Below, one piece after another: positions 1 to 13,105 of a DNA stretch of 64,000 nucleotides (the stretch's first letter is position 1; every line of letters starts with the position of its first letter). A model generated the notes under the pieces. That model saw nothing but the letters and a program-made list of their open reading frames with translations, searched no databases and was not told where the DNA came from. The DNA is from Bacteroidales bacterium (GTDB lineage: Bacteria > Bacteroidota > Bacteroidia > Bacteroidales > WCHB1-69). A program made the position numbers and the translations under genes. The DNA lies in the NCBI GenBank assembly GCA_024400835.1, contig JAKSMC010000008.1, positions 5,082 to 69,081 on the forward strand, in the 5' to 3' direction.

Positions 1-811
1 TGGCCAGCTGCTGTTCCTCCTCAATGCGCTGCTGTTCGAGGTCGAAGACGCTCTGCTCGGATTGCAGGATGCTCATCTGCTGGTTGTCAACGCTCATCCG
101 CGATGATTCAAATGAGGACTGCTGCTGCAAGTAGCTGTTCTTGGAAGACTGGTACTCTGACAGTGAAAGCATTCCTTTGGCATACAGTGACGAGTCCATG
201 GAAAAGAGACTGTGTGCCGAAGCGAGCTGTTTTCTGCTGATCTGCAACTGGTTGACGGTCTTTTGCAGCAGACTCCTTTGCGATGAAATTTGTTTGCGGA
301 TGACCTTTATTTTGCGGTTGTGGTAGTCGGTTTCGATGAAATGCCGGTAATCCGTCAGGGCCTTGTCGAATGCGGTGTAGGCGGATTGGATGTCGCCCAA
401 TTGCAGGGACGAAAAATTTGTGGATTGGATGTCGCCCGTTTGTATGGACGAAAAATTTTTCGTCCGTACAATGTCGCGCAGCATCGTTTTCACCAGCATT
501 ACGTCCTCCAGACGGGCGGTATTGTGGATGACGGCCAGCAGGTCGCCCTCGCGCACCAGCTGTTTCTCGGCCACGGCGAGGGTGTCTATTTTGCCGGTGG
601 TCATCGCCATCACGCCGGCGGGCAGGTTCTCGGTGGTCACGGTGATGGTGGCGGGCAGGATGTCCGGGTACTTGAGGAAGTAGCTGCCCACGAATAGGCC
701 GGCCACCACGATGAAGATGACGCTGATGCCCGCACGCACTATCCAGCGCGGCGGCCTGCCGAGGATCTCTTGTACTTCCTCGCTGCGGAGATTTATGTTG
801 TCGGTTGGCAT
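1..811 (-). CDS. HlyD-family secretion adaptor (membrane-fusion) protein, N-terminal part; the gene runs off the window start
   Basis: It is absent from the ORF track because it leaves the window. The minus-strand ATG at 811..809 gives MPTDNINLRSEEVQEILGRPPRWIVRAGISVIFIVVAGLFVGSYFLKYPDILPATITVTTENLPAGVMAMTTGKIDTLAVAEKQLVREGDLLAVIHN..., followed by Q/S-rich coiled-coil. This is a TM anchor plus lipoyl-like hairpin, typical of bacteriocin-exporter HlyD partners. It lies downstream of the C39-ABC gene on the same strand. Confidence 0.8.
   Translation of the reverse strand, partial: MPTDNINLRSEEVQEILGRPPRWIVRAGISVIFIVVAGLFVGSYFLKYPDILPATITVTTENLPAGVMAMTTGKIDTLAVAEKQLVREGDLLAVIHNTARLEDVMLVKTMLRDIVRTKNFSSIQTGDIQSTNFSSLQLGDIQSAYTAFDKALTDYRHFIETDYHNRKIKVIRKQISSQRSLLQKTVNQLQISRKQLASAHSLFSMDSSLYAKGMLSLSEYQSSKNSYLQQQSSFESSRMSVDNQQMSILQSEQSVFDLEQQRIEEEQQLA
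383..460. repeat. In-frame 39-bp tandem duplication (2 units, 34/39 identical) inside hlyD, overlapping a perfect 20-nt palindrome at 446..465
   Basis: Unit 1 (383-421) is ggattggatgtcgcccaattgcagggacgaaaaatttgt. Unit 2 (422-460) is ggattggatgtcgcccgtttgtatggacgaaaaattttt. They encode NFSSLQLGDIQSA / NFSSIQTGDIQST. The palindrome is ggacgaaaaatttttcgtcc. Confidence 0.85.
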
Positions 812-818
812 TTTTTTA

Positions 819-881
819 GGGAATAGGTAATAGGGAATAGGGAATAGGGAATAGGTGATGGGGGTAGGGGTTAGGGATTGG
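819..881. repeat. Heptamer array A (GGGAATA/GGTAATA orientation on the + strand, degenerating to GGGGTAG/GGGTTAG)
   Basis: The sequence reads gggaata ggtaata gggaata gggaata gggaata ggtgatg ggggtag gggttag ggattgg. It fills the space between the hlyD start (811) and the four-helix-bundle gene and overlaps that gene's stop codon (871-873). Confidence 0.95.
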
Positions 882-1227
882 ATTTGGCGGTTTTTATGCG
901 TGAGGTGAGTAATTTTATCAGTTCGGAGCAGTCGTTGCTGATGCTTTCGAAGGCGATGTTGTCAATGTATTCTGATTCGTGTAGTAGTTCTAACCAATAT
1001 TCCGTTTCTGCAGCTTCCTTGAGCGCAATGGAAGATTTTGAAACGAAGTCCGCCTTAGATTGTGCGTAGGTGCTCTCAGTCAAATTGGCCCCGATGCTTG
1101 TTCCGCACCGCAGCACTTGCTTGGACATCACAAACTCCTTCCTCTCCTCAATCAGAAACTTATACAATCGTATAACCCTCAATGCAAAAGCCTTCGCTTT
1201 TTTCATAATAATTCCTTTATTTTCCAT
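871..1227 (-). CDS. Four-helix-bundle protein (23S rRNA intervening-sequence protein / S23-like family)
   Basis: The 118-aa ORF contains ...AFALRVIRLYKFL...VLRCGTSIGANLTESTYAQSKADFVSKSSIALKEAAETEYWLELL.... The GxSIGANxxE and EtxYWLxL motifs are characteristic of this family. An alternative start is M8 at 1206. Confidence 0.8.
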   Translation of the reverse strand: MENKGIIMKKAKAFALRVIRLYKFLIEERKEFVMSKQVLRCGTSIGANLTESTYAQSKADFVSKSSIALKEAAETEYWLELLHESEYIDNIAFESISNDCSELIKLLTSRIKTAKSNP

Positions 1228-1289
1228 GTTTTTTTCACAATAACGTGAAATAAAAGTTAATATTGTATTAAAAAATATTTTTTTAAAAA

Positions 1290-1353
1290 CTATTACCTAC
1301 CACTTATTACCTATTACTTATTACTTATTACCTATTCCCTATTACCTATTCCC
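1290..1353. repeat. Heptamer array B (CTATTAC/CTATTCC orientation), inverted relative to array A
   Basis: Nine heptamers read ctattac ctaccac ttattac ctattac ttattac ttattac ctattcc ctattac ctattcc. Positions 1331-1353 (cctattccctattacctattccc) are the exact reverse complement of 819-841. The last codons and stop of the ABC gene (LGNR*) are encoded by the array. Confidence 0.95.
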
Positions 1354-3675
1354 TAACTCCAGCTGGTTCCTCACCAACTCGAAGTACTCGCCTCGCAGGG
1401 CGGTGAGTTCCTCGTGTGTGCCCGTCTCCGTGATGCGGCCGTGGTTGATGACCACGATTTGGTCGGCGTTCTTCACCGTGCTCAGGCGGTGCGCCACCAC
1501 GACAACCGTCCTTCCCTTGAAGAACTGCTGGAGGTTCTCCATAATCACCTTCTCGTTGTTGGCATCCAAGGCGTTGGTTGCCTCATCGAAGAAGAGGTAG
1601 TCGGGATTCTTATAGACGGCGCGGGCGATGAGTATGCGCTGGCGCTGGCCCTGACTGATGCCTTTGCCCTCCTGTCCTATCTTGGTGTTGAAGCCTAACG
1701 GCAGCCCGTCTATCATCTCCTGGATGTTGGCCACGCGCACGGCGTTGAGCAGGCGCTGGGTGTCGATGTGCTCGTCACCCACGGCGATGTTGCGGGCGAT
1801 GGTGTCCGAGAAGATGAATCCGTCCTGCATCACCGCGCCGCAGCGGTCACGCCAGAAGCGGTGACTGATGTTCTGCAGCCCCGTCTCGCCCACGCGGATC
1901 TCACCCTTGTTGGGCGGGTAGAAGCCGAGCAGCAGTTTCACCAAAGTGGTCTTGCCGCTGCCGCTCATCCCCACAATGGCCGTCACCTTGCCCTCCGGAA
2001 TGTGCAGCGACAAATCGTGCAGCACATCCTCCCCCAACTCATCATACCGAAATGTTATATTATTGATGTCGAGAGACGCGGCACGCCACGTCCCCACAAA
2101 ATCCCTATTCCCTATTACCTGTTCCTTATTCCCTATTACCTGTTCCCTATTACCTATTACCTGTTCCCTATTACCTATTACCTGTTCCCTATTACCTATT
2201 ACCTGTTCCCTATTACCTATTCCCTCTTCCCTCTCCTCGTCCTCGCGATTATGAATCTCCCCCAGCCGTTCCAGACTGATTTTGGCATCCTGCGCCGACT
2301 GGATGAAGCCTATCATCTGGTTGATGGGGGCGTTGAGCTGGCCGATGATGTACTGAACGGCGGTCATCATACCCAGGGTCATGTCGCCCTTGATGACGGC
2401 GGCGGCGGAGACGAAGGAGATGAGGATGTTCTTGGTCTCGTTGATGAAGAACGCGCCCGACTGCTGGTACTGGCTGAGCGCCAGGCCCTTGATGCTTACG
2501 CGGAAGAGCTTGGCCTGTATGTTCTCCCATTCCCAGCGTTTCTGCTTCTCGCAGTTGTTGAGCTTGATTTCCTGCATTCCCGTGATGAGCTGGTAGAGGT
2601 TGCTCTGCTCGGCGGAGGCCTGCGCGAAACGCTTGTAGTCCAACTCTTTTCGTTTTTTCAGGAATATGGTAATCCACAGCACGTAGAGGATGGAGGCCAC
2701 TAAAAAGACGAGGAACAGCTTGAGGCTGTAAAGCGCCAGCACGATGCTGAACACGATGAGGTTGACGAACGAGAACAGCGTGTTGAGCGTGGTGGAGGTG
2801 AGGAAGGCCTCGATGCGGCTGTGGTCGCCGATGCGCTGCATAATGTCGCCGATCATCTTGGTGTCGAAGAAGCCGATGGGCAGCTTCATCAGCTTGATGA
2901 GGAAGTCGGAGATGATGGAGATGTTGATGCGGGTGCTGATGTGCAGCAAGATCCACGAGCGGATGAACTCAACGGCGGTCTGCGCTAAGTAGAGGGTGAG
3001 CTGGGCGATGAGGATGACGATGACGAAGCTGAGATTGTTGTTGCCGATACCGTAATCCACGATGCTCTGCGTGAGGAATGGGAAGAAGAGCTGCAGCAGC
3101 GTGCCGAGCAGCATTCCGAGGAAGAGCTGCACGATGAGTTTCTTGTAGGGTTTGAGGTATTGGAGTACGAAGCGCAGTTTGGTCTTGTCCTGTTTTTCGT
3201 CTTCCTGTTTGTAGAAATCCGGGGTGGGTTCCAACAGCAGGGCGATGCCCTCGTCTTGGCCGTCCGTTTTGGTGCTGAGCCATCCTGACAGGAATTCCTG
3301 CACAGTGAATTTGATGAGACCCTGTGCGGGGTCAGCCACATAGACCAGTGAACTGTGATCAGTGAGCTGTGAACTGTCTTTGGGAGGTTTGATGTCGTAA
3401 ACGACCACGAAGTGGTTCTGTTTCCAGTGTACGATGCAGGGTAGGGGTGCCTCGCAGAGCTGTTGGAACGAGATGTGCACACCGACGGTGCGGAAGCCGA
3501 TGCCCTCGGCGGCGGTGCTGATGCCGAGCATACTCACCCCCTCGCGCCCGATGAAGCACTTCTGCCGGAGCGTCTCCAACGAATAGTGCTTGCCGTAGTG
3601 CTTGGCAATCATCCGCAGGCACGTCGGCCCGCAGTCCATCGCATCGAGCTGCTGATAAAACGGAAACTTACCCAT
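1342..3675 (-). CDS. Peptidase-C39-domain bacteriocin/RiPP ABC exporter (peptide cleavage/export permease-ATPase)
   Basis: The 777-aa product has an N-terminal C39 domain (QLDAMDCGPTCLRMIAKHYG...HWKQNHFVVVY...VADPA). It then has a six-TM ABC membrane domain and an NBD with Walker A GMSGSGKTT, signature ISQGQRQR, Walker B LFFDEATNALD and H-loop VVVAHRLST. Confidence 0.95.
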   Translation of the reverse strand: MGKFPFYQQLDAMDCGPTCLRMIAKHYGKHYSLETLRQKCFIGREGVSMLGISTAAEGIGFRTVGVHISFQQLCEAPLPCIVHWKQNHFVVVYDIKPPKDSSQLTDHSSLVYVADPAQGLIKFTVQEFLSGWLSTKTDGQDEGIALLLEPTPDFYKQEDEKQDKTKLRFVLQYLKPYKKLIVQLFLGMLLGTLLQLFFPFLTQSIVDYGIGNNNLSFVIVILIAQLTLYLAQTAVEFIRSWILLHISTRINISIISDFLIKLMKLPIGFFDTKMIGDIMQRIGDHSRIEAFLTSTTLNTLFSFVNLIVFSIVLALYSLKLFLVFLVASILYVLWITIFLKKRKELDYKRFAQASAEQSNLYQLITGMQEIKLNNCEKQKRWEWENIQAKLFRVSIKGLALSQYQQSGAFFINETKNILISFVSAAAVIKGDMTLGMMTAVQYIIGQLNAPINQMIGFIQSAQDAKISLERLGEIHNREDEEREEGIGNREQVIGNREQVIGNREQVIGNREQVIGNKEQVIGNRDFVGTWRAASLDINNITFRYDELGEDVLHDLSLHIPEGKVTAIVGMSGSGKTTLVKLLLGFYPPNKGEIRVGETGLQNISHRFWRDRCGAVMQDGFIFSDTIARNIAVGDEHIDTQRLLNAVRVANIQEMIDGLPLGFNTKIGQEGKGISQGQRQRILIARAVYKNPDYLFFDEATNALDANNEKVIMENLQQFFKGRTVVVVAHRLSTVKNADQIVVINHGRITETGTHEELTALRGEYFELVRNQLELGNR
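2104..2229. repeat. Heptamer array C inside the ABC exporter ORF: six 21-nt units of three heptamers each
   Basis: The unit cctatta cctatta cctgttc occurs as three perfect copies (2146-2208) flanked by three variant units. It is translated on the minus strand as GIGNREQV IGNREQV IGNREQV IGNREQV IGNKEQV IGNRDFV, in the linker between the TM domain and the NBD. Confidence 0.95.
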
Positions 3676-3680
3676 ATCAC

Positions 3681-3785
3681 CTATTCCCTATTACTTATTC
3701 CCTATTACTTATTCCCTATTACTTATTACTTATTACCTATTACTTATTACCTATTACCTATTACCTATTACCTATTACCTGTTCC
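3681..3785. repeat. Heptamer array D: 15 tandem heptamers forming essentially the whole intergenic spacer
   Basis: The array reads ctattcc ctattac ttattcc ctattac ttattcc ctattac ttattac ttattac ctattac ttattac ctattac x4 ctgttcc. It is bounded by the ABC start codon (3675) and the SPASM-gene stop (3786). Confidence 0.95.
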
Positions 3786-4898
3786 CTAATCTTCCCCCAA
3801 AATCTCCTTATTCAGTTTGTCAATCCGTTCCTTGTCCGGCACAAATCCCGTTTCGCGGGAATACGTGCCGCACTCCTCTACAGGCACGTAGCCTTCCTGG
3901 CCTTCCCAGAGGCAGATGTAGGGGTTGTAGGTACACTTGGCGGGTTGGGAGTAGATGTTTTCGGGATCTTTGATGAAGGCGCGGCAGTCGGTACACATAT
4001 AGCGGAACTCGCAATCCTTGCAAACGTCAATCTTGTCCTTATTGATGAACCAGAGATCCTTGAATCCCGGCTTGTTGATAGCCTCCTCCAAAGTGGTATC
4101 CCTGATGTTGCCGTAGCTTTTGGCCATAGCCGGACAGTTCTTGATGTTGCCCTCGGCATCAATGCACACCTTGCGGTTGAGGCAGGTGTTGTGGCACTGG
4201 GCTTCGGTGAAACATTCAATTGTTCTACAAAAATAATAAGGATGAATATTGCCGCAACTTATTGAGTTATCTATTTTCTCTTTAGTAATAATTATAGTAT
4301 TTTCTCCTTCTTGAATTATTTTATTGTAGTCAGAATTTGTAACAACAATTTTGCTAATAGAGGAGTTGTTTCTCCTCCAAGTTAAAAGTTCAGCTTCAGA
4401 TGCTATATTTGAAGCATTTATGACATACTCGAAATATTTCATACCTACATTACTGGCATAGTGTTGAATTTCAGAGATTTTTTCCGATTCAAAACGGCTA
4501 AAAATCAAAAATTGTATATTAACACAATTCAAACGGAGAAGTTCACTAAGTATGTTTTTATAAAATTTATAATTGAAATTGTTTAATACCAATATTGCAT
4601 TGGTGACATGTGCTGGATACGCCCAGGTCAGATCCATTTTGGGGAAATTTTGCAACTCATTGTCTTCTATCTCAAATAGATACTCTTCTTTAATAAGGCT
4701 ATTAATAAAAGAAGAAATGTTTTTTTGAGAGAACTTATCATATAGACCTATTGTTAGGGAATCAATCACATTATTATCATTGAATAAGCCAGTAATACCA
4801 TTTGGTATAAATATATGTTTGTCTCGCTGTAGATCGTATATACAACTTCTTCCATAACCTACCACAAGTCTACAGCATTCGAATAATCTATACTTCAT
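3786..4898 (-). CDS. SPASM-domain peptide maturase of the 'grasp-with-spasm' type (no canonical radical-SAM CX3CX2C motif visible)
   Basis: The 370-aa product starts MKYRLFECCRLVVGYGRSCIYDLQRD.... Its C-terminal Cys-rich SPASM-like region is CHNTCLNRKVCIDAEGNIKNC...CKDCEFRYMCTDC...C. The N-terminal half has no CxxxCxxC. The gene is adjacent to an ATP-grasp gene. Its 3' ~430 nt are GC-rich and its 5' ~680 nt are AT-rich. Confidence 0.8.
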   Translation of the reverse strand: MKYRLFECCRLVVGYGRSCIYDLQRDKHIFIPNGITGLFNDNNVIDSLTIGLYDKFSQKNISSFINSLIKEEYLFEIEDNELQNFPKMDLTWAYPAHVTNAILVLNNFNYKFYKNILSELLRLNCVNIQFLIFSRFESEKISEIQHYASNVGMKYFEYVINASNIASEAELLTWRRNNSSISKIVVTNSDYNKIIQEGENTIIITKEKIDNSISCGNIHPYYFCRTIECFTEAQCHNTCLNRKVCIDAEGNIKNCPAMAKSYGNIRDTTLEEAINKPGFKDLWFINKDKIDVCKDCEFRYMCTDCRAFIKDPENIYSQPAKCTYNPYICLWEGQEGYVPVEECGTYSRETGFVPDKERIDKLNKEILGED

Positions 4899-5091
4899 AA
4901 TTAGACAGATTAAAATTTAGAATTTTTGAAATGGTTTTATAAAAAGTAAACACCTTTTCCACTTCATTTGAATATTGTTTGATTTGTTCTTCGTTTGAAC
5001 TAGTGCTTTGGTCGATTTCCCAAAAATGTGCTATTACAGGATAGCGTTCGGGATTGTCCATTATTTCTTTCGTTAAGGGGGTTTCTTTCAT
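4888..5091 (-). CDS. Small acidic hypothetical protein (67 aa), translationally coupled between the ATP-grasp and SPASM genes
   Basis: Its start shares an ATGA overlap with the ATP-grasp stop (5088-5091), and it overlaps the SPASM gene start by 11 nt. No recognisable motif and no GG leader are present. Confidence 0.5.
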   Translation of the reverse strand: MKETPLTKEIMDNPERYPVIAHFWEIDQSTSSNEEQIKQYSNEVEKVFTFYKTISKILNFNLSNYEV

Positions 5092-6047
5092 TTCAATAAA
5101 TAATCTGCGATTGTTTTTTCTAAATGATAATTACAATTCCTGCTAAGCCATCCAAATTGTCCAATGGGATTGACTTCAAGAAAAACATACTGGTAGTCGG
5201 GAGTGACGATGATATCGGCGGATCCAGAGGTTAGTTTTAGTTGTCGATAAAGTTTAAGAAGTTTTTTCTCGTACCATAAAGGTAGTTTGTATGGTACGTT
5301 TCTATTGGGATTATCACTATCATAGTTCCGGAAATCCACTTGTGTCTTTTTATTATTTTGACTGAAGATTGCCATACTATAGATTTTGTCATCAAGAAAA
5401 AAACTTCGAATCTCATATTTCTTTTCAATATATTCTTGAAAAAGAGAAGGAACGAATGAAGCTGGAAGTTTCGCAATCTTGTAGTCGTTTAGCAGGACAG
5501 TTGAGGACGAGAACCTGTATTCCTTCCCGTTAATAATAGCATTTCCTAATGGAGCGACAGTGGATTTCGTAATAATTTTCCCGAATTTTTTTGCAAACTC
5601 TTCCAAGTCAGATTTACTACTAGTTACTAAGGTTGCAGGTATATTAATTCCTAAATGTTTGCAATTGTACAAAACATTCATTTTTTCAAGAAAATTATCA
5701 GAAGCACAATTGATATTACTAGTGAAATTCAAACTTTCCAGAAAAGTTTTAACTGGCGCCACATGTTTGTTCCACAAATACGTATTTACGCTGGGGTATT
5801 CTGATTTGCATTGAGTAAAAAAATTCAGCATACCTCTTCTGTACCAATATTTATCTTTTTCTGACACAGTATGCTGGTTGAAATCGACTATCACGTCATT
5901 GTCTGACACCAAAAGTTTCACGGATTCGATATCATAAAAATCATTTATTTCTATCAAGCAATCAGTATGACCATAGTAATTAAGCCATCGTACAACCTCG
6001 CTTGAGGATTCATCATCACTAACAGTTTGTATATATATATTCCTCAT
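5088..6047 (-). CDS. ATP-grasp RiPP maturase ('grasp-with-spasm' / MvdD-like graspetide ligase)
   Basis: The C-terminal half contains ...KIITKSTV...YEIRSFFLDDKIYSMAIFSQNNKKTQVDFRNYD...ADIIVTPDYQYVFLEVNPIGQFGW..., an ATP-grasp fold signature as in microviridin-type ligases. The start is chosen at M19 (6047), which abuts the upstream stop (6049-6051); the longest ORF would start at 6101. Confidence 0.82.
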   Translation of the reverse strand: MRNIYIQTVSDDESSSEVVRWLNYYGHTDCLIEINDFYDIESVKLLVSDNDVIVDFNQHTVSEKDKYWYRRGMLNFFTQCKSEYPSVNTYLWNKHVAPVKTFLESLNFTSNINCASDNFLEKMNVLYNCKHLGINIPATLVTSSKSDLEEFAKKFGKIITKSTVAPLGNAIINGKEYRFSSSTVLLNDYKIAKLPASFVPSLFQEYIEKKYEIRSFFLDDKIYSMAIFSQNNKKTQVDFRNYDSDNPNRNVPYKLPLWYEKKLLKLYRQLKLTSGSADIIVTPDYQYVFLEVNPIGQFGWLSRNCNYHLEKTIADYLLK

Positions 6048-6048
6048 A

Positions 6049-7200
6049 TTATAAGTATTGCGTATGTCCCCACCTAAAGACACAGCCCTGGTCTTCAGCA
6101 AATCGAATCTTTGCTCTGTCTGCTTCTAAAGAACAAATACAAAACTTTTTTCGAAGACCGTTAATTCTATCGTCTGGAATGATGGAGGCTAACGATGAGA
6201 CACCTACGGAACGATCAACAAAGAAAATTGCCATATTTTTTTCTGAGCAAAATAAAGGATTTTTACTCAAATAAGTGTCATACATAAAAGCATACAATCT
6301 TGGATGGAGGTTCCCTTTCTCTATTTCTTCAATGGCATATTTTTCAATATAGGCATACATACTGTCTTGATGGACATAGAAAGATTCCAATAGACCTTGT
6401 GTGAGTCTGTTTGTGTTCATTTCGTATAATATCGTGTCGATATGGTCAAATTCGATGTAAATAGTGTCGCCATTGGGCATTACGGATGTCAAAGGCCTAT
6501 CCCCAATAATTCTGGTCAATGCCGCTGAATCCCTAAATACTTTTGATTTGAAATCCAAGCAAGAAATTCCTAATTCGTCAAACAGTTGATTGTCATCAAT
6601 GCCGAGAATCTTTTGGCCGGGGAATCCGTATTTTTGAACAAGTTGCTGATATTTCATATCCCATACAAGGAGGCTGTCTTTATACGGGTTGTTTTCACTG
6701 TTTTCATATTCCTCCAGCACCATTTTTTGATCTGCTATGCAAAGGTCATAAATTTGGCACAGGTAGTCCGTGCTGATTGAATGAAGATAATATCGGTGCC
6801 TTTGCTTTCCTTCTTCTAAATTTTCATAAACCTGAAAATCTTTTAGAACTTCTGATTCCGCCCACATTGGAATGAATGCGAGGTGTTTGGACCGAAGGCC
6901 GTACTTTACGCCTTTATGAAGGTAGTATTCATAATTGTGCTTCGGATAATATGGAAATCTGTCCTTTGAAGTGTAAAAAGAAATTTGTGCTGCATTAAGC
7001 AAGTCGTTTACATAATTGAATTCAAAGTTGTCAAAAGCAAGGTCGTAATAATATAAGCAGCTATCCGCATTGTTATCCACAAAGAATGCATTTTCGGCTT
7101 GAGCTATCCACTGATGATATTGCCAATAATTGTCCCCAGCATATGGCTGTGCCACAAGGTACAAAGGGAACAACAATACAGTAATAAGTTTTTTTAGCAT
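6049..7200 (-). CDS. Hypothetical exported protein (383 aa) encoded between the precursor and the ATP-grasp gene
   Basis: The N-terminus MLKKLITVLLFPLYLVAQP looks like a signal peptide. The protein is Tyr/Asp-rich with no motif I recognise. It is tightly packed in the operon. Confidence 0.65.
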   Translation of the reverse strand: MLKKLITVLLFPLYLVAQPYAGDNYWQYHQWIAQAENAFFVDNNADSCLYYYDLAFDNFEFNYVNDLLNAAQISFYTSKDRFPYYPKHNYEYYLHKGVKYGLRSKHLAFIPMWAESEVLKDFQVYENLEEGKQRHRYYLHSISTDYLCQIYDLCIADQKMVLEEYENSENNPYKDSLLVWDMKYQQLVQKYGFPGQKILGIDDNQLFDELGISCLDFKSKVFRDSAALTRIIGDRPLTSVMPNGDTIYIEFDHIDTILYEMNTNRLTQGLLESFYVHQDSMYAYIEKYAIEEIEKGNLHPRLYAFMYDTYLSKNPLFCSEKNMAIFFVDRSVGVSSLASIIPDDRINGLRKKFCICSLEADRAKIRFAEDQGCVFRWGHTQYL

Positions 7201-7220
7201 AAACTTTGATTTTAATTTGT

Positions 7221-7260
7221 CAAGTGAGAAATTGACCAGAAACGGTCAGTTTCCCACTTG
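7221..7260 (-). terminator. Stem-loop immediately downstream of precursor gene 1 (attenuator or stabiliser; no U-tract)
   Basis: The sequence caagtgagaaattgacc-agaaac-ggtcagtttcccacttg forms a ~17-bp interrupted stem. It sits between the precursor stop (7278) and the next start (7200). Confidence 0.45.
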
Positions 7261-7277
7261 ATTTAAATTTTCATAAT

Positions 7278-7511
7278 CTACTTTTTATCTTCGGGGCATG
7301 GGATAGTGTAAGTATCGGATAGAACTTGTCCAAAACCACTTAGAGAATCATCGTAAATGTCACATTCGGTTGATATTATATTACCATTTTGATCTTTGTT
7401 ATATATTGTCGTTTTTCTTTTCGACCCACCTCTGATTTTCAAAGGAGAATCAATTGATTGAGATTTATAGTCTTCTAATTTTTTATTGTTGATTGTTTGT
7501 ATTTTTTTCAT
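7278..7511 (-). CDS. RiPP precursor peptide 1 (double-glycine leader; candidate graspetide/SPASM substrate)
   Basis: The sequence is MKKIQTINNKKLEDYKSQSIDSPLKIRGG | SKRKTTIYNKDQNGNIISTECDIYDDSLSGFGQVLSDTYTIPCPEDKK. The 29-aa Lys-rich leader ends in GG, which fits a C39 cleavage site. The 48-aa core is rich in Ser/Thr (10), Asp/Glu (8) and Lys (5), with 2 Cys. The start is taken at MKK (7511); the ORF track starts 2 codons earlier. Confidence 0.7.
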   Translation of the reverse strand: MKKIQTINNKKLEDYKSQSIDSPLKIRGGSKRKTTIYNKDQNGNIISTECDIYDDSLSGFGQVLSDTYTIPCPEDKK

Positions 7512-7517
7512 AACCAA

Positions 7518-7740
7518 ATAGTTTAAATGGTAAAACTCCTCTTTCCCGCGGGTGTGTCGGCACTTTGCGCGGCACTTTCGGGTATGTCATCACAACGGGA
7601 AAAATGGTATCTTTGCCGCCTGATTTGCAGTGCCATCGCGTTACAAACATCACGATATATGCGACCTCGGTGCTTTTGAGCAGGGTACATCGTACTAAGA
7701 ATGCGACTTCCTTGGCGATGTCCCTGCGGGGGCACCTGTT
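7518..7740 (-). other. GC-rich non-ORF segment upstream of precursor 1, paralogous to 11899..12120 upstream of precursor 2
   Basis: Collinear similarity blocks have matching spacing and matching distance (about 71-75 nt) to each precursor ATG: 7586-7634 vs 11969-12016, 7678-7691 vs 12055-12068, and 7717-7733 vs 12097-12113. The segment also contains the direct repeat cggcacttt N3 cggcacttt at 7557-7580. Confidence 0.6.
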
Positions 7741-7743
7741 TTA

Positions 7744-7778
7744 GGGAATAAGTAATAGGTTATAGGTAGTATGTGATG
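7744..7778. repeat. Heptamer array E (GGGAATA orientation, degenerate, 5 units)
   Basis: The array reads gggaata agtaata ggttata ggtagta tgtgatg. Positions 7744-7759 are the exact reverse complement of cctattacttattccc, which is present twice in array D (3687-3702 and 3701-3716). Confidence 0.8.
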
Positions 7779-8088
7779 AGTTTACTTATTCACCTGTTTA
7801 CGTCCTGCCAACGGTCTTTACGCACCACGATGGCAGGACTTCAATCAAGGAAGTGATTCTTCCCCAACCAATAGAGGTCGGGCAGCAAATAAGGATTCAG
7901 GTTGTCATCTTTCATTCATTCGTCATTTTTAGTTAGCGGTTGTCTTATTCAGTGTGTTAACCTTTTACGGTCCTCTTCATCGGCCGCGCCCAGCCCGTAA
8001 AAAGCGAGTGCAATAATATTAAAAACTTTTGTATATAGGTCGTTTTTCTGTTTTTTACTTTAATGATTATCAAATAGTTAGCGATTGC

Positions 8089-8535
8089 TTAAGTAATAAA
8101 ACAGCCTATCGAGAAGCGGAATTTTCGGAGAAAATCCGATGGGGGATGGTGGGGATTTCGGAGAAATTTGATGAGGCCCTGCGCGGGGTCCGCCACATAG
8201 ACCAGTGAACTGTGATCAGTGAGCTGTGAACTGTCTTTGGGGCGTTTGATATCGTAAACGACCACGAAGTGGTTCTGTTTCCAATGCACGATGCAGGGCA
8301 ATGGTGCCTCGCAGAGCTGTTGGAACGAGATGTGCACGCCGATAGTGCGGAAGCCGATGCCCTCGGCGGCGGTGCTGATGCCGAGCAGGCTCACGCCCTC
8401 GCGGCCGATGAAGCACTTCTGCCGGAGCGTCTCCAACGAATAGTGCTTGCCGTAGTGCTTGGCAATCATCCGCAGGCAAGTGGGGCCGCAATCCATGGCA
8501 TCGAGTTGCTTGTAAAACGGGAATTTTTTACTCAT
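8089..8535 (-). CDS. Stand-alone peptidase C39 domain: a truncated paralog of the 5' end of the ABC exporter gene (functional status unknown)
   Basis: The 148-aa ORF has its first ~123 aa nearly identical to the exporter N-terminus (MSKKFPFYKQLDAMDCGPTCLRMIAKHYG...HWKQNHFVVVY...VADPAQGLIKF). The nucleotide homology 8166-8535 vs ~3318-3675 is roughly 90% by eye. It then diverges into an unrelated 24-aa tail. The catalytic Cys, His and Asp positions are retained. Confidence 0.55.
   Translation of the reverse strand: MSKKFPFYKQLDAMDCGPTCLRMIAKHYGKHYSLETLRQKCFIGREGVSLLGISTAAEGIGFRTIGVHISFQQLCEAPLPCIVHWKQNHFVVVYDIKRPKDSSQLTDHSSLVYVADPAQGLIKFLRNPHHPPSDFLRKFRFSIGCFIT
8138..8157. repeat. G-rich heptamer-like patch at the C39-paralog breakpoint, flanked by a 10-bp direct repeat
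   Basis: The patch gatgggg gatggtg gggatt resembles the degenerate end of array A. It is flanked by ttcggagaaa at 8124-8133 and 8157-8166. Homology to the full-length exporter gene ends here. Confidence 0.6.
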
Positions 8536-8577
8536 TGATAGTTACTCATTACTAAATCCTAATTGTTAATCCTCTCC
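8536..8577. repeat. Heptamer array F (degenerate, TATTACC orientation) directly upstream of the C39 paralog
   Basis: The sequence reads ..tagttac tcattac taaatcc taattgt taatcct... It occupies the same position relative to the C39 start codon as array D does for the full gene. Confidence 0.55.
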
Positions 8578-8583
8578 CCAAAT

Positions 8584-8660
8584 CTATTTGTTCAACTCAG
8601 CAATCCTCTTCTTGTCGGGCATTCCCTCAAGCCTGTCCGAGAACTCCAAATCATGTATTT
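8584..8660 (-). pseudogene. Remnant of the 3' end of a SPASM maturase gene (last ~20 codons plus stop)
   Basis: The minus-strand translation ...LEFSDRLEGMPDKKRIAELNK* aligns with the C-terminus of the 3786..4898 product (...TYSRETGFVPDKERIDKLNKEILGED*). It has the same order (SPASM end, heptamer spacer, C39 start) as 3786-3675. Confidence 0.5.
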
Positions 8661-8850
8661 TTATTCACAAGTTACATGTGAAAAAAAAACTCTTTTTTTC
8701 AATTTTGCGGAGAAGGGGATAAATGAGTTCTCGGACGAACTTATCTTTTCGTGGTAAGCTGCTTCGAACACCTCTACGGGTATCTATCCTATCAAGAGCT
8801 ACCTGTCTGTACAAAAAGAGTGAGCATGATTCGTTTTATTTTTTTTAAAT

Positions 8851-10275
8851 CTATTTCTTGTCATTCATCACCATTTTCACAATCTCTTCGACATCACTAT
8901 TCTCGAAATCCCTTTCCACATCAGGGGCAATCCCGTTCGAGCAGTCGCGGTTGCGGGTGTCAAAACTTCTGAACGAGTTGATCATGCAGATGATGCCTGA
9001 GGGGAGCGGTACCACAAGCGGCTGACCTGTAGCACCCGCAGTGGTTTTTCCCACCACACACACATTCGGACTTTGCACGAGCTGCATCACGAAACCCTCT
9101 GCGGCGGAGGCTGTGCGCGGACCGACCAAGACGTAAACTTTCCCATGATACCGTTGCGAGTTCGGATTCCCGTTCGCCACCGTAGTTGCTTGGATGGTAT
9201 CGAACGCATTATTGAATAAATGCGGACAATAGACCCGTTTGGTGTATTCATCCATGGATTCAGGATCTCCATACAGCATTCTCACAGCCGCCCAAGCCCG
9301 GTAGGCCGAATTGTTGACCCGCGACAACAGCACTCCCGACAACATAATCGAATCTTTATCAACAAGATAAGGCGTTATAGGAGAATAGGCTCTGCCGTCG
9401 CCCCCCAAATTGTTGCGCAAATCCAGAACGAAATGCATATTTTGGTTGATTGTGGGTAAATATTTCATGAAAGTGTCCACCGTGGCCGCATTGCAATCGT
9501 CGATACGCAGATATGCAGCATCTTGTGCCGGAAAAACCACAAACAGATTATTATTTCCAGCCAAGTTTTCACTTTCTATCGCCATCCAATGGTATTTCAA
9601 CTGTTCCTCTTCCTGTTCTTTTGATGGAGAAAAATGCCAGTCGTAACCTATTGACAGCTTCTTGAGCCCATTTCCCGATTTCACCTCCATTTCCAGCTTT
9701 GTGTTATAGCTTTTCGGTTGGAAAATCATGGGATGCAAGGCATTCGGCGTGAACATCGCGGCTTCAAGCAAGGTCTCTTGATTGGTGCAAGAAATCAGTG
9801 GCGCTACATTTTGCGTAAACCATTCCACTGCAGGAATCCCATCTATACGGACAATTTCATCCCCAACTGAAACCTTGTCGGCGTATTGAGAGCTGATATT
9901 GCGGATATAAATCCTGCCGTCTCTGTACTCCGTCTGCAGTCGAATCATCGCCAACGAAGGCATTAGCTGTTGCGGCATCATGCAGTAGGTGTGGCTGTTA
10001 TGAAAATGCGCCAAGAACTCCTGCATCGTCAGGTAGTGCTCGAAATCGTCCTTTGTCCGCTGAATCTTGGGGATATAGGCGGCATAGAGACTGTCCACGT
10101 TCAGTCCCTGACAATTATCCATATTGGCGAAGTTGTAGGACAACTCTTTCCAAACCACAGCGAGTTCGTATATTTTTTGAGATGATGTGAGCTGTTCTTT
10201 ACCGCCAACTTGTGCGATAAGGGTTGGCGTAATCAAGATTGTCACAAAAGCTAAAATAAAAGGAATTTTTTTCAT
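8851..10275 (-). CDS. Peptidase S41 family (tail-specific/C-terminal processing protease-like), with signal peptide
   Basis: The 474-aa product starts MKKIPFILAFVTILITPTLIAQ. It contains FVLDLRNNLGGDG and VYVLVGPRTASAAEGF, which match S41 DLRxNxGG and S-A-x-E type motifs. Its start lies 12 nt downstream of the rSAM gene. Confidence 0.8.
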   Translation of the reverse strand: MKKIPFILAFVTILITPTLIAQVGGKEQLTSSQKIYELAVVWKELSYNFANMDNCQGLNVDSLYAAYIPKIQRTKDDFEHYLTMQEFLAHFHNSHTYCMMPQQLMPSLAMIRLQTEYRDGRIYIRNISSQYADKVSVGDEIVRIDGIPAVEWFTQNVAPLISCTNQETLLEAAMFTPNALHPMIFQPKSYNTKLEMEVKSGNGLKKLSIGYDWHFSPSKEQEEEQLKYHWMAIESENLAGNNNLFVVFPAQDAAYLRIDDCNAATVDTFMKYLPTINQNMHFVLDLRNNLGGDGRAYSPITPYLVDKDSIMLSGVLLSRVNNSAYRAWAAVRMLYGDPESMDEYTKRVYCPHLFNNAFDTIQATTVANGNPNSQRYHGKVYVLVGPRTASAAEGFVMQLVQSPNVCVVGKTTAGATGQPLVVPLPSGIICMINSFRSFDTRNRDCSNGIAPDVERDFENSDVEEIVKMVMNDKK

Positions 10276-10287
10276 TTCAAATGTCTA

Positions 10288-11589
10288 TTACTTTTTTGCA
10301 ACTTTGCTTCTAATATATCTTTGGAATGATATTTCTGAATAATCATTGCGACATACAAAATCATGCTTACCTTTTTGTATTTCATAATGGTGTTGCACAC
10401 AGGGACCATAACACAATGGTAATATTTTACAATTCAAACATTTTTCATTGTCAAAAGTGGTTTTGCCAAAATAGGTGCTCATAACATTGTCATCGAGTAT
10501 CAAATCTCCATCAGAGCATAATCTTCCAATTACTAAACTGTCATCATAGTCCCGTGCTGCACATTTGTAGATTTTACCATCATAATTTATCACTCTGTGG
10601 TAATAGTTGTCTGAATAACACGCTGAAAAGCCACGATGCCTATACGCAAAATACTCTACTTGAAATCCAGCCTCCTCAAAATCACGTTTCCTTTGTAATA
10701 GAGTTTCGTTTTCACCAGAAATGGGATCTTTAGACAATCCAACCTGCCATATTCTTTGAAAATCAACAAAAATACTTTTTCTGTTCTTAACGGGGAAAAA
10801 GTCTATTATTTCTGAAATATCCGACAACGTGTCAGTGTCATAATTGATTCTCAGAACCACCATTGAGTTTTCAATACTTTCGCAGATATAATTTACATTA
10901 TCTATTATTTTTTTAAAATGCCCTTCCCCCTTGATATTTTTCACCATATTATGCCTTGTTTCGTTCCCGTCAATCGGAATTTGAAATTTATTCAAATTGA
11001 TGGTATTACAGGCTTTTATTATTTCCTCATTGAAATAATAACCATTGGTGGTGATTTGGTTAATAAACGGCAATCTGTGGCGTTTGCATAATTCAATAGC
11101 ATGTGTCGAAATCGGAAGTATTACTTCGTTAAAATACATTAATGGTTCTCCTCCAAACCAATCAATATGTAAAGAATTAACGCCGTTCTTCACTATCTTG
11201 AGTATGTGATTCTTTATTTTCTGAATGGTTGAGTTGTCCATTCGTCTCTTTTCATATTTAGTGTTCATTTCTTCTACACAACAATACCAACACCTATAAT
11301 TACATTGTAACGTTGGATTTATCGTTAAGTGGTAATTCCTTTCCGACAGGATTGTCTCTTTGTTTTTGAACAATAAATAATTTATTTCGTCGAATTTTTC
11401 GTCTACAATGAAATGACATTGAATAAAATACTGAAAGATATCCGGATAGTGTTCTTCAAATTCATTCAAGTTGGTTAAATAGTACTTGATGTCATTGGTT
11501 TCTTTAGAATCAAATTCGATTGCTATATCTGAAAAAGAGTTATAAAGAATGTTCTCTTGCCAAATATTAAATACGCTGTTTTTTTTCAT
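10288..11589 (-). CDS. Radical SAM/SPASM peptide maturase
   Basis: LTINPTLQCNYRCWYCCV provides the CX3CX2C motif. The C-terminal SPASM motif is CLNCKILPLCYGPC (CX2CX5CX3C) plus auxiliary Cys residues. The start is chosen at MKKNSVF (11589); the longest ORF starts at 11619 but would run through the hairpin/U-tract. Confidence 0.88.
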   Translation of the reverse strand: MKKNSVFNIWQENILYNSFSDIAIEFDSKETNDIKYYLTNLNEFEEHYPDIFQYFIQCHFIVDEKFDEINYLLFKNKETILSERNYHLTINPTLQCNYRCWYCCVEEMNTKYEKRRMDNSTIQKIKNHILKIVKNGVNSLHIDWFGGEPLMYFNEVILPISTHAIELCKRHRLPFINQITTNGYYFNEEIIKACNTINLNKFQIPIDGNETRHNMVKNIKGEGHFKKIIDNVNYICESIENSMVVLRINYDTDTLSDISEIIDFFPVKNRKSIFVDFQRIWQVGLSKDPISGENETLLQRKRDFEEAGFQVEYFAYRHRGFSACYSDNYYHRVINYDGKIYKCAARDYDDSLVIGRLCSDGDLILDDNVMSTYFGKTTFDNEKCLNCKILPLCYGPCVQHHYEIQKGKHDFVCRNDYSEISFQRYIRSKVAKK

Positions 11590-11606
11590 ATCAATTATTT
11601 TTACTG

Positions 11607-11671
11607 AAAAAATGCCCAAAAGGATCTTATCAAAACCTTATGCTCTTATTGTTTTAATGCCCTTTTGGGCA
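11607..11671 (-). terminator. Intrinsic-terminator-like attenuator between precursor 2 and its rSAM maturase
   Basis: An 11-bp perfect stem pairs 11661-11671 with 11613-11623 (gcccaaaagg/ccttttgggc core) around a 37-nt loop. It is followed on the minus strand by UUUUUU (11612-11607), 18 nt before the maturase ATG. Confidence 0.55.
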
Positions 11672-11694
11672 AGCTTGTTATGTTAGTTCATTCA

Positions 11695-11898
11695 TTAAGA
11701 TTTAGGGAGACAAGCAGGAATGCACAAAGAGAATGGCTTAATGCGACATGGATTGTCCAAAGGGAGACAATAAGGGTTTTGGATTGGGGGAAGCGGTGGA
11801 ATATCCCCTTCGCCTCCGATTATTTTTTGTGCATTTTTAAGTTGTCTAAGAGACTCTTTACAAAGAGACAACGATGGTTTGTTTTTTTTAACTTTCAT
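11695..11898 (-). CDS. RiPP precursor peptide 2 (double-glycine leader; Pro/Cys-rich core)
   Basis: The sequence is MKVKKNKPSLSLCKESLRQLKNAQKIIGG | EGDIPPLPPIQNPYCLPLDNPCRIKPFSLCIPACLPKS. The 29-aa leader ends in GG. The 38-aa core has 10 Pro and 4 Cys. It lies immediately upstream of the rSAM/SPASM gene. Confidence 0.7.
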   Translation of the reverse strand: MKVKKNKPSLSLCKESLRQLKNAQKIIGGEGDIPPLPPIQNPYCLPLDNPCRIKPFSLCIPACLPKS

Positions 11899-12304
11899 AT
11901 CATGTAATTTATTTGTTCAACTTTCCCCTTCTGCTTTTGCCGGCAGGAAAGAATCTCCGGTTGCTCCACACTCACAACAGAAAAAATGTTACTTTTGCCA
12001 TCGAATTTGGGTGCCAAGCAGTAGAGCCATACCCGACCGTTTTCGGATGCCGATAGCACAGGGACATCATCATATATCCGTTATAACATCAAGGGTGATG
12101 TTCCCTGTGGGGCATCCTTTTCTTCCGTGCCGTCCCGGTAATCGCAGAACAGGATTTCCTGCCTTACGACTGCGCCCCTCAGACGGCACGCGAGTCAGCC
12201 AAGTTATTTTTGCCCAACCATTGCAGATCAGGGGCATCGGTTTTTATGTGAATTGCTTTTTTCATGTTTCTCCTTTTCGTTCAGCCGCAAGGAAGCGGTA
12301 GCTC

Positions 12305-12805: not shown

Positions 12806-13105
12806 CGTGTTTGGTTTTATAAATACATTAAACAATTGATTTTCGACGGCAAAAATACTATTGATTTCAACATAATTTAAACCCTCACAGCAAAATGTGA
12901 ACCCCCTTATGGAAAAATATGCACCCATTGGCAGACAAGCTGATTTTAGGAGGTGTATCGTATTAACAATCAGTATGTTTAAAAACACCCTATTTTATCA
13001 ATTGCGTGAGGGGAAAAGTACTTGTTATGAGGGGATAGAGCTACTTCGCACAATAAGATATTTGAATATTATCTATCTTTGCCGCAGTATTCAAATCAGT
13101 TCACA

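Follow-up and report, generated by a model that had tools for sequence, protein, structure and literature searches.

The classical STRR units of heterocystous cyanobacteria are the heptamers CCCCAGT, TTGGTCA and CAACAGT. Like the arrays that we describe here, the STRR of these cyanobacteria and long simple-sequence repeats are intergenic, copy-variable tandem heptanucleotides (Mazel 1990; Mrazek 2007), but our arrays fall outside the classical STRR1-3 class, their unit being GGKAATA (TATTMCC on the opposite strand) and their host a member of the Bacteroidales. The GGGNATC repeats of Xanthomonas and Nostoc (Rehm et al. 2015, PMC4692102) include GGGAATC, which is one base from our GGGAATA. They too are largely intergenic (~90%), lie tens of nucleotides from the upstream stop codon and mostly between co-oriented genes, often form convergent inverted pairs, and vary in length between related species while their position is conserved. 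Our arrays are, however, poorer in G and fail the G-quadruplex motif, and the Xanthomonas pairs given in the first part of Table A of the S2 Table lie 21-67 nt apart with no enclosed gene, unlike arrays A and B below. One GGGAATC array (repeat #15) overlaps the start of Xanthomonas XCC0516, which corresponds to the four-helix-bundle (4HB) structure 2GSC, though Rehm et al. drew no link between the repeats and 4HB genes (PMC4692102). Direct TAACTGA repeats, in arrays of up to 43 copies, have been reported from Beggiatoaceae, Cyanobacteria and five Bacteroidetes including Paludibacter, of the Bacteroidales (MacGregor 2015, PMC4679880). They resemble our arrays in standing close before start codons or after stop codons, and in that the spacers of relatives are shorter and repeat-free, but they have another unit, are almost all direct rather than inverted, and were not noted to be linked to any gene family. 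Although searches of the literature on heptanucleotide repeats in Bacteroides, and on STRR plus heptamer, returned nothing direct, heptamer arrays in Bacteroidetes are therefore already described and not new here (PMC4679880), and an earlier interpretation of this DNA made from its letters alone (the sequence-only reading), which was aware of none in Bacteroidales, had missed them.

Also among the closest known systems is the intervening sequence (IVS) of 23S rRNA. In Coxiella, 2-3 strain-variable GACAGAT heptamers precede the S23p ORF within a 28-bp terminal stem that is cut by RNase III (PMC4990558). The S23p IVS elements of Coxiella, Leptospira and Brucella and the locus studied here have in common a PF05635 ORF of ~120 aa inside terminal inverted repeats forming a long stem, and for Coxiella the likeness embraces ORF family, inverted arms, heptamers and copy-number variation. 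In contrast to the S23p IVS, our cassette resides not in helix 45 or 25 of 23S rRNA but between protein genes of an export operon (ABC and HlyD), its arms consist wholly of tandem heptamers (5-9 units), and cleavage of its stem is only presumed by analogy. In the literature library available for searching, a link between PF05635 genes at large and heptamer arrays was drawn in no paper, Coxiella being the single case that joins the two.

The stretch of DNA analysed here, 64 kb long, is called the window throughout; the features of its peptide-export locus are as follows.

2-809, minus strand: HlyD-family adaptor gene, running off the window; its start codon (807-809) lies 7 nt after array A
817-881, plus (G-rich) strand: array A, the 3' inverted bracket of the putative 4HB cassette
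871-1227, minus strand: 4HB protein gene of the TIGR02436/PF05635 ('23S rRNA intervening sequence protein' or S23p) family
1290-1355, minus strand: array B, 9 units, the 5' inverted bracket of the putative 4HB cassette
1342-3675, minus strand: C39-peptidase ABC exporter gene, which hosts array C
2102-2232, minus strand: array C, 18 units, in frame in the TMD-NBD linker of the ABC exporter
3675-3788, minus strand: array D, ~16 units, the whole spacer from the SPASM maturase stop to the ABC start
3786-4898, minus strand: grasp-with-SPASM maturase gene, inside which, at ~4211, GC content breaks and homology to relatives stops
7742-7790, plus strand: array E, degenerate, 6 units, a 49-bp insertion relative to the related locus L181
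8089-8535, minus strand: truncated C39 paralog, of which 8165-8526 is 92% identical to 3308-3669
8138-8157, plus strand: former 'G-rich patch', without heptamer periodicity, 8 nt beyond the end of C39 paralogy (8165)
8536-8577, minus strand: former 'F', not an array but an ancestral-type SPASM-to-ABC spacer, CAATTAGGATTTAGTAATGAGTAACTATCA, beside the C39 fragment, with proto-units (AGTAATG)

Five genuine arrays (A-E) with the coding-strand unit GGKAATA are thus present, confined within the window to ~8 kb. Their head-to-tail 7-nt units, in at least three copies, are far above chance, and four of the five arrays are non-coding and abut stops or starts, both of which are STRR-like features. TRF reported period-7 arrays at 817-855, 1290-1355, 2102-2232 and 3675-3788, and the 44 matches to TATTMCCx3 with up to three mismatches, where 0.01 would be expected in the 64 kb, all fall within 819-7771. 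A period-7 scan of the whole window returned A-D as the only strong arrays, with E weaker and degenerate. The sequence-only reading had counted seven arrays of one family; the five, and their absence elsewhere in the window, hold, whereas 'F' is no array and the patch at 8138-8157 gave no period-7 signal. A resemblance of the degenerate tail of array A to that patch was considered and discarded as too weak to count.

Array A, consisting of five GGGAATA/GGTAATA units followed by the degenerate GGTGATG GGGGTAG GGGTTAG, accounts for 54 of the 61 nt of the 4HB-to-HlyD spacer (817-870) and overlaps the 4HB stop codon (871-873). Array B (GGGAATA/GGTAATA/AGTAATA on the coding strand) overlaps the ABC stop and supplies, together with it, the final three codons (GNR), not four as first proposed. 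Array D extends, as had been recognised, from the SPASM stop (3786-3788) all the way to the ABC start (3673-3675). Array C, which TRF describes by period 7 at 79% matches and by period 21 at 95%, is built of the 21-bp super-unit GGTAATA-GGGAACA-GGTAATA and is read in frame as (GNREQVI)x6; the C of GGGAACA abolishes the TAG that GGGAATA would make in that frame. Array E (GGGAATA AGTAATA GGTTATA GGTAGTA TGTGATG and so on) is flanked by a 9-bp direct repeat, CACCTGTTT, at 7733-7741 and 7791-7799. The exact inverted repeats announced by the sequence-only reading are real: 23 nt between A (819-841) and B (1331-1353), and 16 nt between E (7744-7759) and D (3687-3702).

That the G-rich strands regulate transcription or translation by forming G-quadruplexes, a role put forward for the GGGAATC and GGGGAYT repeats, is suggested by the single-base distance of GGGAATA from the Xanthomonas GGGAATC unit, which forms quadruplexes in vitro (PMC4692102), and by the seven GGG runs of array A. 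We nevertheless consider this idea very improbable, and the quadruplex pattern claimed by the sequence-only reading falls short of the standard motif. A regular-expression search for the canonical motif (four G3 tracts with N1-7 loops) on both strands of the 64-kb window gave 0 matches; only three GGG tracts of array A are consecutive with 4-nt loops, B has two runs, and the four of D are widely spaced. The units are mostly GGTAATA or AGTAATA, with GG or G only, and most units found around other 4HB genes (AATTGAC, AAAAGTG, AATGCAT and others) cannot form a quadruplex.

What A and B enclose is the 4HB gene, placed between the exporter and HlyD genes and with a GC content of 34-45% as against 56-60% in the flanking genes. 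Its product matches TIGR02436 (E 5.6e-30), its homologs carry PF05635, and its relatives in the PDB, 2RLD and 2GSC, have five chains each. Exact look-up of the protein sequence retrieved no record, and PADLOC gave no match for three 4HB proteins. The inverted bracketing of this gene by A and B had been overlooked previously. The two arms are complementary over 23 nt exactly and over 47 nt at 87%, and in the RNA fold of 800-1370 (minus strand) the B:A stem is closed, with an MFE of -154.5 against -122 +/- 6 kcal/mol for shuffled sequences (z = -5.4). Judged by its sequence, the locus thus joins three hallmarks of S23p-type IVS elements, namely the PF05635/TIGR02436 ORF, complementary termini with a predicted stable stem, and strain-variable heptamers upstream, and we take A and B to be the inverted end-repeats of a 4HB cassette wedged into a peptide-export operon. 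Rfam had no match at E <= 0.1 in window positions 1-14000.

Foldback-type elements and MITEs have inverted arms of variable-number short tandem repeats around a short cargo. The arms and cargo of our cassette recall this design, and array E has a 9-bp target-like duplication; unlike such elements, however, the locus encodes no transposase, around the 4HB cassette we identified no target-site duplication (the one at array E being the only one), and arm sequences differ from locus to locus.

To place these observations in a wider context, 80 metagenomic 4HB loci were collected by a metagenome scan with a narrow 4HB alignment. Period-7 arrays occur there at 2.11 per kb within 200 bp of the gene as compared with 0.042 per kb beyond 400 bp, a ~50-fold difference, while no arrays of period 5, 6 or 9 were found near the 4HB genes of the 80 loci. 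Upstream arrays are present in 31 of the 80. Both flanks were available for 64 loci: arrays stand on either side of the gene in 12, upstream alone in 11 and downstream alone in 13, and 28 (~44%) show no detectable array. In all 12 two-sided loci the array after the gene reads as the reverse complement of that before it. The median gap is 16 nt from array end to start codon and 3 nt from stop codon to array. Forty-five 4HB loci display 32 different units, with sharing limited to close proteins. Cyanobacterial loci (L113, L053) show the inverted bracket too, as do six from IMG/VR, and in 41 of 54 loci the 4HB gene is co-oriented with both neighbours, as in MFP-4HB-OEP or asd-4HB-dapA. When RNA duplex energies of the flanks were compared, 25 of the 65 own pairs did better than the 5th percentile of mismatched ones, a result that is supportive but carries little weight given that energies are large even for mismatched controls. 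The inverted heptamer bracket is, as far as sequence comparison goes, a general context of arrays around this 4HB family in many bacteria. The closest non-orthologous 4HB loci (L164-L179, including L164 and L170) have no arrays, so that arrays are not obligatory for 4HB genes; the second 4HB copy of the window (61808-62269) likewise has no detectable array.

These data bear directly on the most economical alternative, in which the arrays would be ordinary neutral microsatellites of a repeat-rich genome whose place around the 4HB gene is a coincidence of permissive intergenic space. Heptamers are indeed the commonest long simple-sequence-repeat class in many bacteria, as Mrazek 2007 is quoted in PMC4679880 and PMC4692102, and the present unit family is scattered beside unrelated genes in several phyla. 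We nonetheless hold such a coincidence to be distinctly unlikely, as it would have to yield the ~50-fold enrichment, the inverted match in every two-sided locus, and five arrays of one unit in 7 kb of the window with zero in the other 56 kb.

The same loci invite a second alternative, namely that the arrays are cis-acting RNA or DNA binding sites for a putative repeat-reading protein serving auto-regulation or translation control of the flanking operon genes. The most attractive candidate would be the 4HB protein itself, a ring-shaped pentamer to which ~5 units per array might correspond, with S1 or cold-shock-type proteins as further candidates. In favour of this are the abutment of arrays on 4HB start and stop codons, their median length of ~5 units (34-37 nt), their strict period of 7, and a unit that is common to close 4HB proteins and unlike between distant ones; moreover, PMC4990558 describes S23p as a toroidal homopentamer, 2RLD and 2GSC have five chains each, and MacGregor proposed protein binding for the TAACTGA repeats upstream of start codons (PMC4679880). 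Yet common descent explains just as well why unit and protein vary together, 44% of the sampled 4HB genes have no detectable array, and the inverted arrangement with its strong predicted stem favours pairing over single-strand binding. We know of no binding data in the 4HB family outside the DGR Avd proteins, and we regard the proposal as unlikely.

Viewed from the side of the repeats, the association looks different. (TATTMCC)n arrays with n of at least 4 are abundant in cyanobacterial genomes, and the unit family lies next to unrelated genes in cyanobacteria, Gemmatimonadota, Acidobacteriota, Bacteroidota and Clostridia. In 120 loci of other genomes, 85% of the 136 arrays fall outside long ORFs as compared with 35% for random placement, with a median distance of 42 nt to an ORF end, which bears out the resemblance to STRR seen by the sequence-only reading. 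Neighbours are diverse, and a 4HB gene adjoins only two of the 120 loci. We considered that arrays of this unit family might usually stand beside 4HB genes and rejected it, HMM and Pfam searches finding a 4HB gene in just 3 of 162 array-selected loci (L113, L053 and L011). In other words, 4HB genes predict arrays, but arrays do not predict 4HB genes; and since most arrays in other genomes have no 4HB neighbour, arrays can exist and spread without the gene.

Comparison with relatives, among which exporter homologs 74-85% identical to ours (P0142, P0166, P0173, P0193 and P0232) have sources named as Bacteroidales, shows that arrays at the four sites A-D recur in related strains with unlike copy numbers, as is typical of STRR. 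Array C has 18 units in the window, 6 in L180 (exporter P0121) and ~4 in L163, the differences of 84 and 105 bp being, as for all its length variants, multiples of 21 bp that leave the frame intact. Array D has ~16 units in the window, 10 (68 bp) in L180 and 3 in L267, while B and A, with 9 and ~8 units in the window, have ~3 each in L163. On this evidence the arrays are real microsatellites, prone to slippage, whose copy number varies at the same sites. They do not behave as phase-variation (contingency) repeats, as coding array C stays in frame and changes in B affect nothing past the stop. The linker that accommodates C is hypervariable among 120 exporter homologs, and other 7-aa repeats occur in it.

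In relatives further removed, these sites have short spacers that are not repetitive, and the 4HB gene is missing. In L182/L184 the SPASM-ABC spacer is 23 bp and the ABC-HlyD spacer 2 bp, with neither arrays nor 4HB gene; non-repeat SPASM-ABC spacers of 20-30 bp are found in L182, L181 and window 'F'. L266 also misses the 4HB gene at its ABC-HlyD junction, where it has a GAGTTAA-type array. Ancestral sequences contain proto-units, with GGGAAATAG where the ABC gene stops and AGTAATGAGTA ahead of its start, and sites C and D of L182 show a degenerate heptamer periodicity, which suggests that arrays at these two sites may predate the present cassette.

The remaining alternative is the one advanced by the sequence-only reading, in which the arrays mark every module boundary and act as recombination substrates, or cassette junctions, for swapping maturase modules against a constant exporter. 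Its premise is sound in so far as the upstream maturase sets differ among relatives of the exporter at 84-89% aa identity. In L267, moreover, the same ABC gene has another gene as its upstream neighbour, similarity to the window sets in within array D, and the inverted arrays E and D flank the AT-rich maturase block. However, the L267 break is the sole such case and is expected because the array is the entire spacer, and the other mapped breakpoints lie outside arrays. Inside the SPASM gene lie the major GC break (~55% to 30%, near 4200) and the left-hand limit, at ~4211, of both the AT-rich block and the L181/L182 homology. The end of the C39 paralogy, at 3308/8165, coincides with no array, and the 8138 patch, claimed as the breakpoint, stops 8 nt short of it. 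The junction of SPASM end, C39 fragment, non-coding stretch and precursor is common to the window and to L181, which has no arrays; it follows that the junction predates array E. L181, L182 and L268 are module-diverse without strong arrays, and the ABC-4HB-HlyD order is identical in the window and L163 (the L180 contig, which stops inside array B, covers only SPASM-D-ABC(C)-B). We consequently find a role in recombination quite improbable: slippage, the other half of the original proposal, is borne out by the copy numbers of L180, L163 and L267, whereas the arrays are not supported as junctions and seem to mark the cassette and its surroundings rather than the machinery of maturase-module exchange.

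The explanation that we favour, with moderate confidence, is that of heptanucleotide microsatellites tied to a small, selfish-looking 4HB cassette. The 4HB gene would have inserted between the ABC exporter and HlyD genes with B and A as its inverted terminal repeats, and in the operon transcript these are predicted to pair into a stem of ~45 bp enclosing the ORF. This anatomy would be that of the S23p-encoding IVS elements, in which the stem is cut by RNase III, and a similar cleavage may be presumed here. C, D and E would represent the unit at permissive places of the operon, namely a linker of a protein that tolerates it, the spacer between two genes and non-coding DNA further upstream, where they may have grown from proto-units of ancestral spacers. 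Copying between arrays probably contributed as well: the unusual terminal unit GGTGAT(G/A) is found in A, D and E alike, and E is inserted sequence with a duplication of 9 bp. We infer that C, D and E arose from the cassette rather than the reverse. Every array would then grow and shrink by replication slippage, survivors in coding arrays being limited to 21-bp steps and stop-free unit variants.

Far more tentatively, PF05635 4HB genes and inverted heptamer arrays might constitute one widespread IVS-like cassette class that inserts, across bacterial phyla, into 23S rRNA genes as well as between genes transcribed together. Solitary arrays and gene-less inverted pairs, which make up much of the heptamer load of cyanobacteria, Xanthomonas and Bacteroidota, could then be footprints or non-autonomous derivatives, with the repeats perhaps read or maintained by the pentameric 4HB protein. 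We think this possible, but doubtful.

For RiPP genome mining, our findings imply that such arrays break short-read assemblies, that they add in-frame repeat peptides to exporter linkers, and that they should not be taken as recombination hot spots without population evidence. Taken together, the data connect statistically two loose ends of bacterial genomics, the nature of heptamer repeats of the STRR and GGGAATC type and the role of the common 4HB or '23S rRNA IVS' genes, and the picture that emerges is one of a small gene carried in a predicted repeat-built RNA stem within operons. If RNase III cuts this stem, such cassettes would split polycistronic mRNAs, here the exporter message from that of its HlyD partner, and would represent an unrecognised layer of operon regulation or parasitism.

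The genes of 1-11.6 kb are all carried by the minus strand and run as follows along the transcript:

11619-10288 (-), radical-SAM gene, first along the transcript
10275-8851 (-), S41 peptidase
8535-8089 (-), truncated C39 fragment
between the C39 fragment and the 79-aa ORF, non-coding DNA of ~570 nt
7517-7278 (-), 79-aa ORF
between the 79-aa ORF and the ATP-grasp maturase (-), 383-aa ORF
6101-5088 (-), grasp-with-SPASM ATP-grasp maturase
between the ATP-grasp and SPASM maturases (-), 67-aa ORF
4898-3786 (-), SPASM maturase
3675-1342 (-), C39-ABC exporter
1227-871 (-), four-helix-bundle (4HB) gene (TIGR02436, E 5.6e-30)
809 to the window edge (-), HlyD adaptor

The GC content of the 4HB gene is below that of the adjoining genes. 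A second PF05635-like 4HB gene (~153 aa, 61808-62269, minus strand) stands alone, without heptamer arrays at its flanks. The non-coding segment 5' of the 79-aa ORF (7526-7741) is conserved in the related loci L181 (484-646 and 5963-6168) and L182 (5582-5799); it has no Rfam match and may be a promoter or leader common to these RiPP modules.

Tandem Repeats Finder places period-7 arrays (TATTMCC units) at 817-855 (A), 1290-1355 (B), 2102-2232 (C) and 3675-3788 (D), and a search for three consecutive TATTMCC units with up to three mismatches returned 44 matches against 0.01 expected, all within 819-7771; scanning the full window for period 7 revealed no further arrays of this kind. Of the arrays called in the sequence-only reading, A-D are well supported and E (7742-7790) is a fifth, degenerate one, but "F" (8536-8577) and a G-rich patch (8138-8157) have no periodicity, "F" being the ancestral-type SPASM-to-ABC spacer, near-identical in the relatives L182 and L181. 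The exact inverted repeats it described are correct on re-checking the sequence; its proposed G-quadruplexes fail, with zero G3N1-7 x4 motifs on either strand, since the units are mostly GGTAATA or AGTAATA. Missing from its list is a second, different period-7 repeat inside both C39 paralogs (3346-3377 and 8203-8234; ~4.3 units, ACAGTTC-type on the coding strand), which encodes DSSQLTDHSSL. The HlyD gene also contains, at 383-458, a ~30-bp palindromic hairpin GTACGGACGAAAAATTTTTCGTCCATAC inside a 39-bp x1.9 repeat, and relatives carry a ~30-bp palindromic hairpin GTAGAGACGCAAAATTTTGCGTCTCTAC in the C39 domain and HlyD (L267, 397-427; L182, 12692-12722). Such hairpins in coding genes resemble REP/RPE-type elements that the proteins tolerate, and the VGTYRIRP duplications of exporter linkers may be related to them.

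Three related assemblies (L180, L163 and L267) carry arrays at the window's sites, and the lengths differ there, as the suggestion that the arrays are slippage substrates had anticipated. In L180, whose exporter has 96% protein identity to the window's, the array D spacer measures 68 bp versus 110 bp and array C encodes two GNREQVI repeats versus six; its contig stops within array B. L163 (~80-86% DNA identity, 4HB gene in place) has ~4 units at C (105 bp fewer), ~3 at B and ~3 at A, and L267 (exporter 89% protein identity) has 3 units at D. Array C, which lies in the exporter gene, is constrained in frame: it has a super-period of 21 bp (95% matches versus 79% for period 7, Tandem Repeats Finder), every third unit is GGGAACA, which avoids the TAG that GGGAATA would make in this frame, and all strain differences are multiples of 21. 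This is the pattern that selection for an open frame should produce on a slipping array. The TMD-NBD linker is hypervariable across 120 exporter homologs, and other exporter lineages carry other 7-residue repeats there at the protein level (QCTMYNE, LGIRNEE, SEQLIVN), presumably in-frame triplets of other heptamers. More distant relatives (L182/L184, exporter identity 85%) have a 23-bp SPASM-ABC spacer, a 2-bp ABC-HlyD spacer and no 4HB gene, and already contain proto-units at the ABC stop (GGGAAATAG) and start (TAGTAATGAGTA).

Maturase sets differ among the exporter relatives L181, L182, L266, L267 and L268, and the arrays had been proposed as the recombination junctions at which such modules are shuffled. 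In L267, and only there, homology to the window starts inside an array (D), beside a different upstream gene, which fits this idea; it is also to be expected of any gene-preserving swap where the array is the entire spacer. The other mapped breakpoints lie away from arrays: the GC content drops from 55% to 30%, and homology to L181/L182 ceases, at ~4211 within the SPASM gene; the C39 duplication pairs 3308-3669 with 8165-8526; and the same SPASM-end/C39-fragment/non-coding/precursor junction is present in L181 (86-95% identity), where it is array-free. Array E, a 49-bp insertion with a 9-bp duplication at its flanks in a non-coding stretch conserved with L181, is therefore younger than the junction. 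The observation of the arrays was largely right, their interpretation as cassette junctions mostly not. A SPASM 3' remnant, spacer and truncated C39 domain occur as a second copy upstream of the maturase block (window 8089-8621 versus 3308-4211), with the same junction in L181 (4785-5971); the arrangement resembles a scar left by an old module insertion through recombination in the SPASM/C39 region. Downstream of the exporter, L181 (~12220-12560) and L267 (~2400-2800) have a GC-rich non-coding stretch of structured appearance (GCCGGTGGCGGGGACG...GGTGCGGG...); in L267 the next feature is a small ORF, in L181 two small ORFs plus a radical-SAM gene. The stretch could be a riboswitch-like leader.

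Arrays A and B are inverted and directly flank the 4HB gene on its two sides, and the predicted RNA fold of 800-1370 (minus strand) is a long B:A stem enclosing the 4HB ORF (MFE -154.5 kcal/mol versus -122 +/- 6 for shuffles, z = -5.4). This bracket is general. Among array-selected loci of other genomes, the cyanobacterial loci L113 (Umezakia) and L053 share one layout, in L113 (GGGAATA/GGGAACG)n, a PF05635 gene and (CCCTGTT)n. A metagenome scan for the gene family gave 80 loci encoding 4HB proteins of 51-66% identity, where the density of period-7 arrays is 2.11 per kb up to 200 bp from the 4HB gene versus 0.042 per kb beyond 400 bp, and arrays of periods 5, 6 and 9 are absent. Of 64 loci with both flanks, 12 have arrays on two sides, 11 upstream only, 13 downstream only and 28 none; in 12/12 two-sided loci the upstream array recurs downstream as its reverse complement, with 7-14 heptamers common in inverted and 0 in direct orientation. 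The arrays are ~5 units long; the median gap to the start codon is 16 nt for those upstream, and the median gap from the stop is 3 nt for those downstream. The unit itself varies (32 consensus units in 45 loci) and is common only to closely related proteins; six further loci, found with cyanobacterial 4HB proteins, have such brackets with units GGGAGTA, AGTGNNC and AGGGTGT. The 4HB gene is co-oriented with both neighbours in 41/54 loci and occurs within operons (e.g. MFP|4HB|OEP, asd|4HB|dapA). The association of period-7 arrays with PF05635 genes is strong, period-specific and inverted.

Loci of other phyla show inverted pairs of heptamer arrays around non-coding segments or ordinary genes (L111, 4620-4935, MITE-like with 44-nt perfect arms including unique sequence; L153, 462-823; L130, 96-1027, around a 283-aa ORF; L006, 3286-4080), so the bracket can hold cargo other than 4HB genes. 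Rumen Ruminococcus and Clostridia MAGs encode 4HB proteins 63-66% identical to the window's (P0012, P0043, P0046, P0083) and also carry TATTMCC arrays (L070, L088, L099), which suggests cross-phylum exchange in the rumen community.

The window arrays themselves belong to an already known kind of repeat. Heptamers are the commonest long simple-sequence repeats of many bacteria, according to Mrazek (2007) as cited in PMC4679880. The arrays of Xanthomonas (GGGAATC) and Nostoc (GGGGAYT) are ~90% intergenic, near the upstream stop, often in convergent inverted pairs, with lengths that vary by species at stable positions, and array #15 in the table of Rehm et al. covers the XCC0516 start codon (PMC4692102). 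XCC0516 is the 4HB crystal structure 2GSC. TAACTGA arrays are described in five Bacteroidetes, including Paludibacter of the Bacteroidales (MacGregor, PMC4679880); heptamer arrays are therefore not new in the phylum.

The closest anatomy to the window's 4HB cassette is that of the S23p-encoding intervening sequences (IVS) of 23S rRNA, and our literature search returned no paper extending it to 4HB genes outside rRNA or noting matched inverted arrays. We propose that the B:A stem would be processed in the manner of an IVS stem, that the inverted arms would stay matched through copying between them, and that C, D and E would be satellites of the cassette, because their unit is that of the cassette, the end variant GGTGAT(G/A) is common to A, D and E, and E is an insertion. 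Against a simple story stand the 44% of sampled 4HB genes without an array, the lack of a 4HB neighbour at most cyanobacterial arrays, and the ABC-HlyD junction of L266, which has an array but no 4HB gene. Also against it, sites C and D of L182 show weak heptamer periodicity, a hint that the arrays are possibly older than the present cassette. Solitary arrays may be footprints of lost cassettes. What is of interest is this association with PF05635 genes, strong, period-specific and inverted: because of it the locus is an IVS-like cassette set in an mRNA, and two little-understood features of bacterial genomes are tied together.
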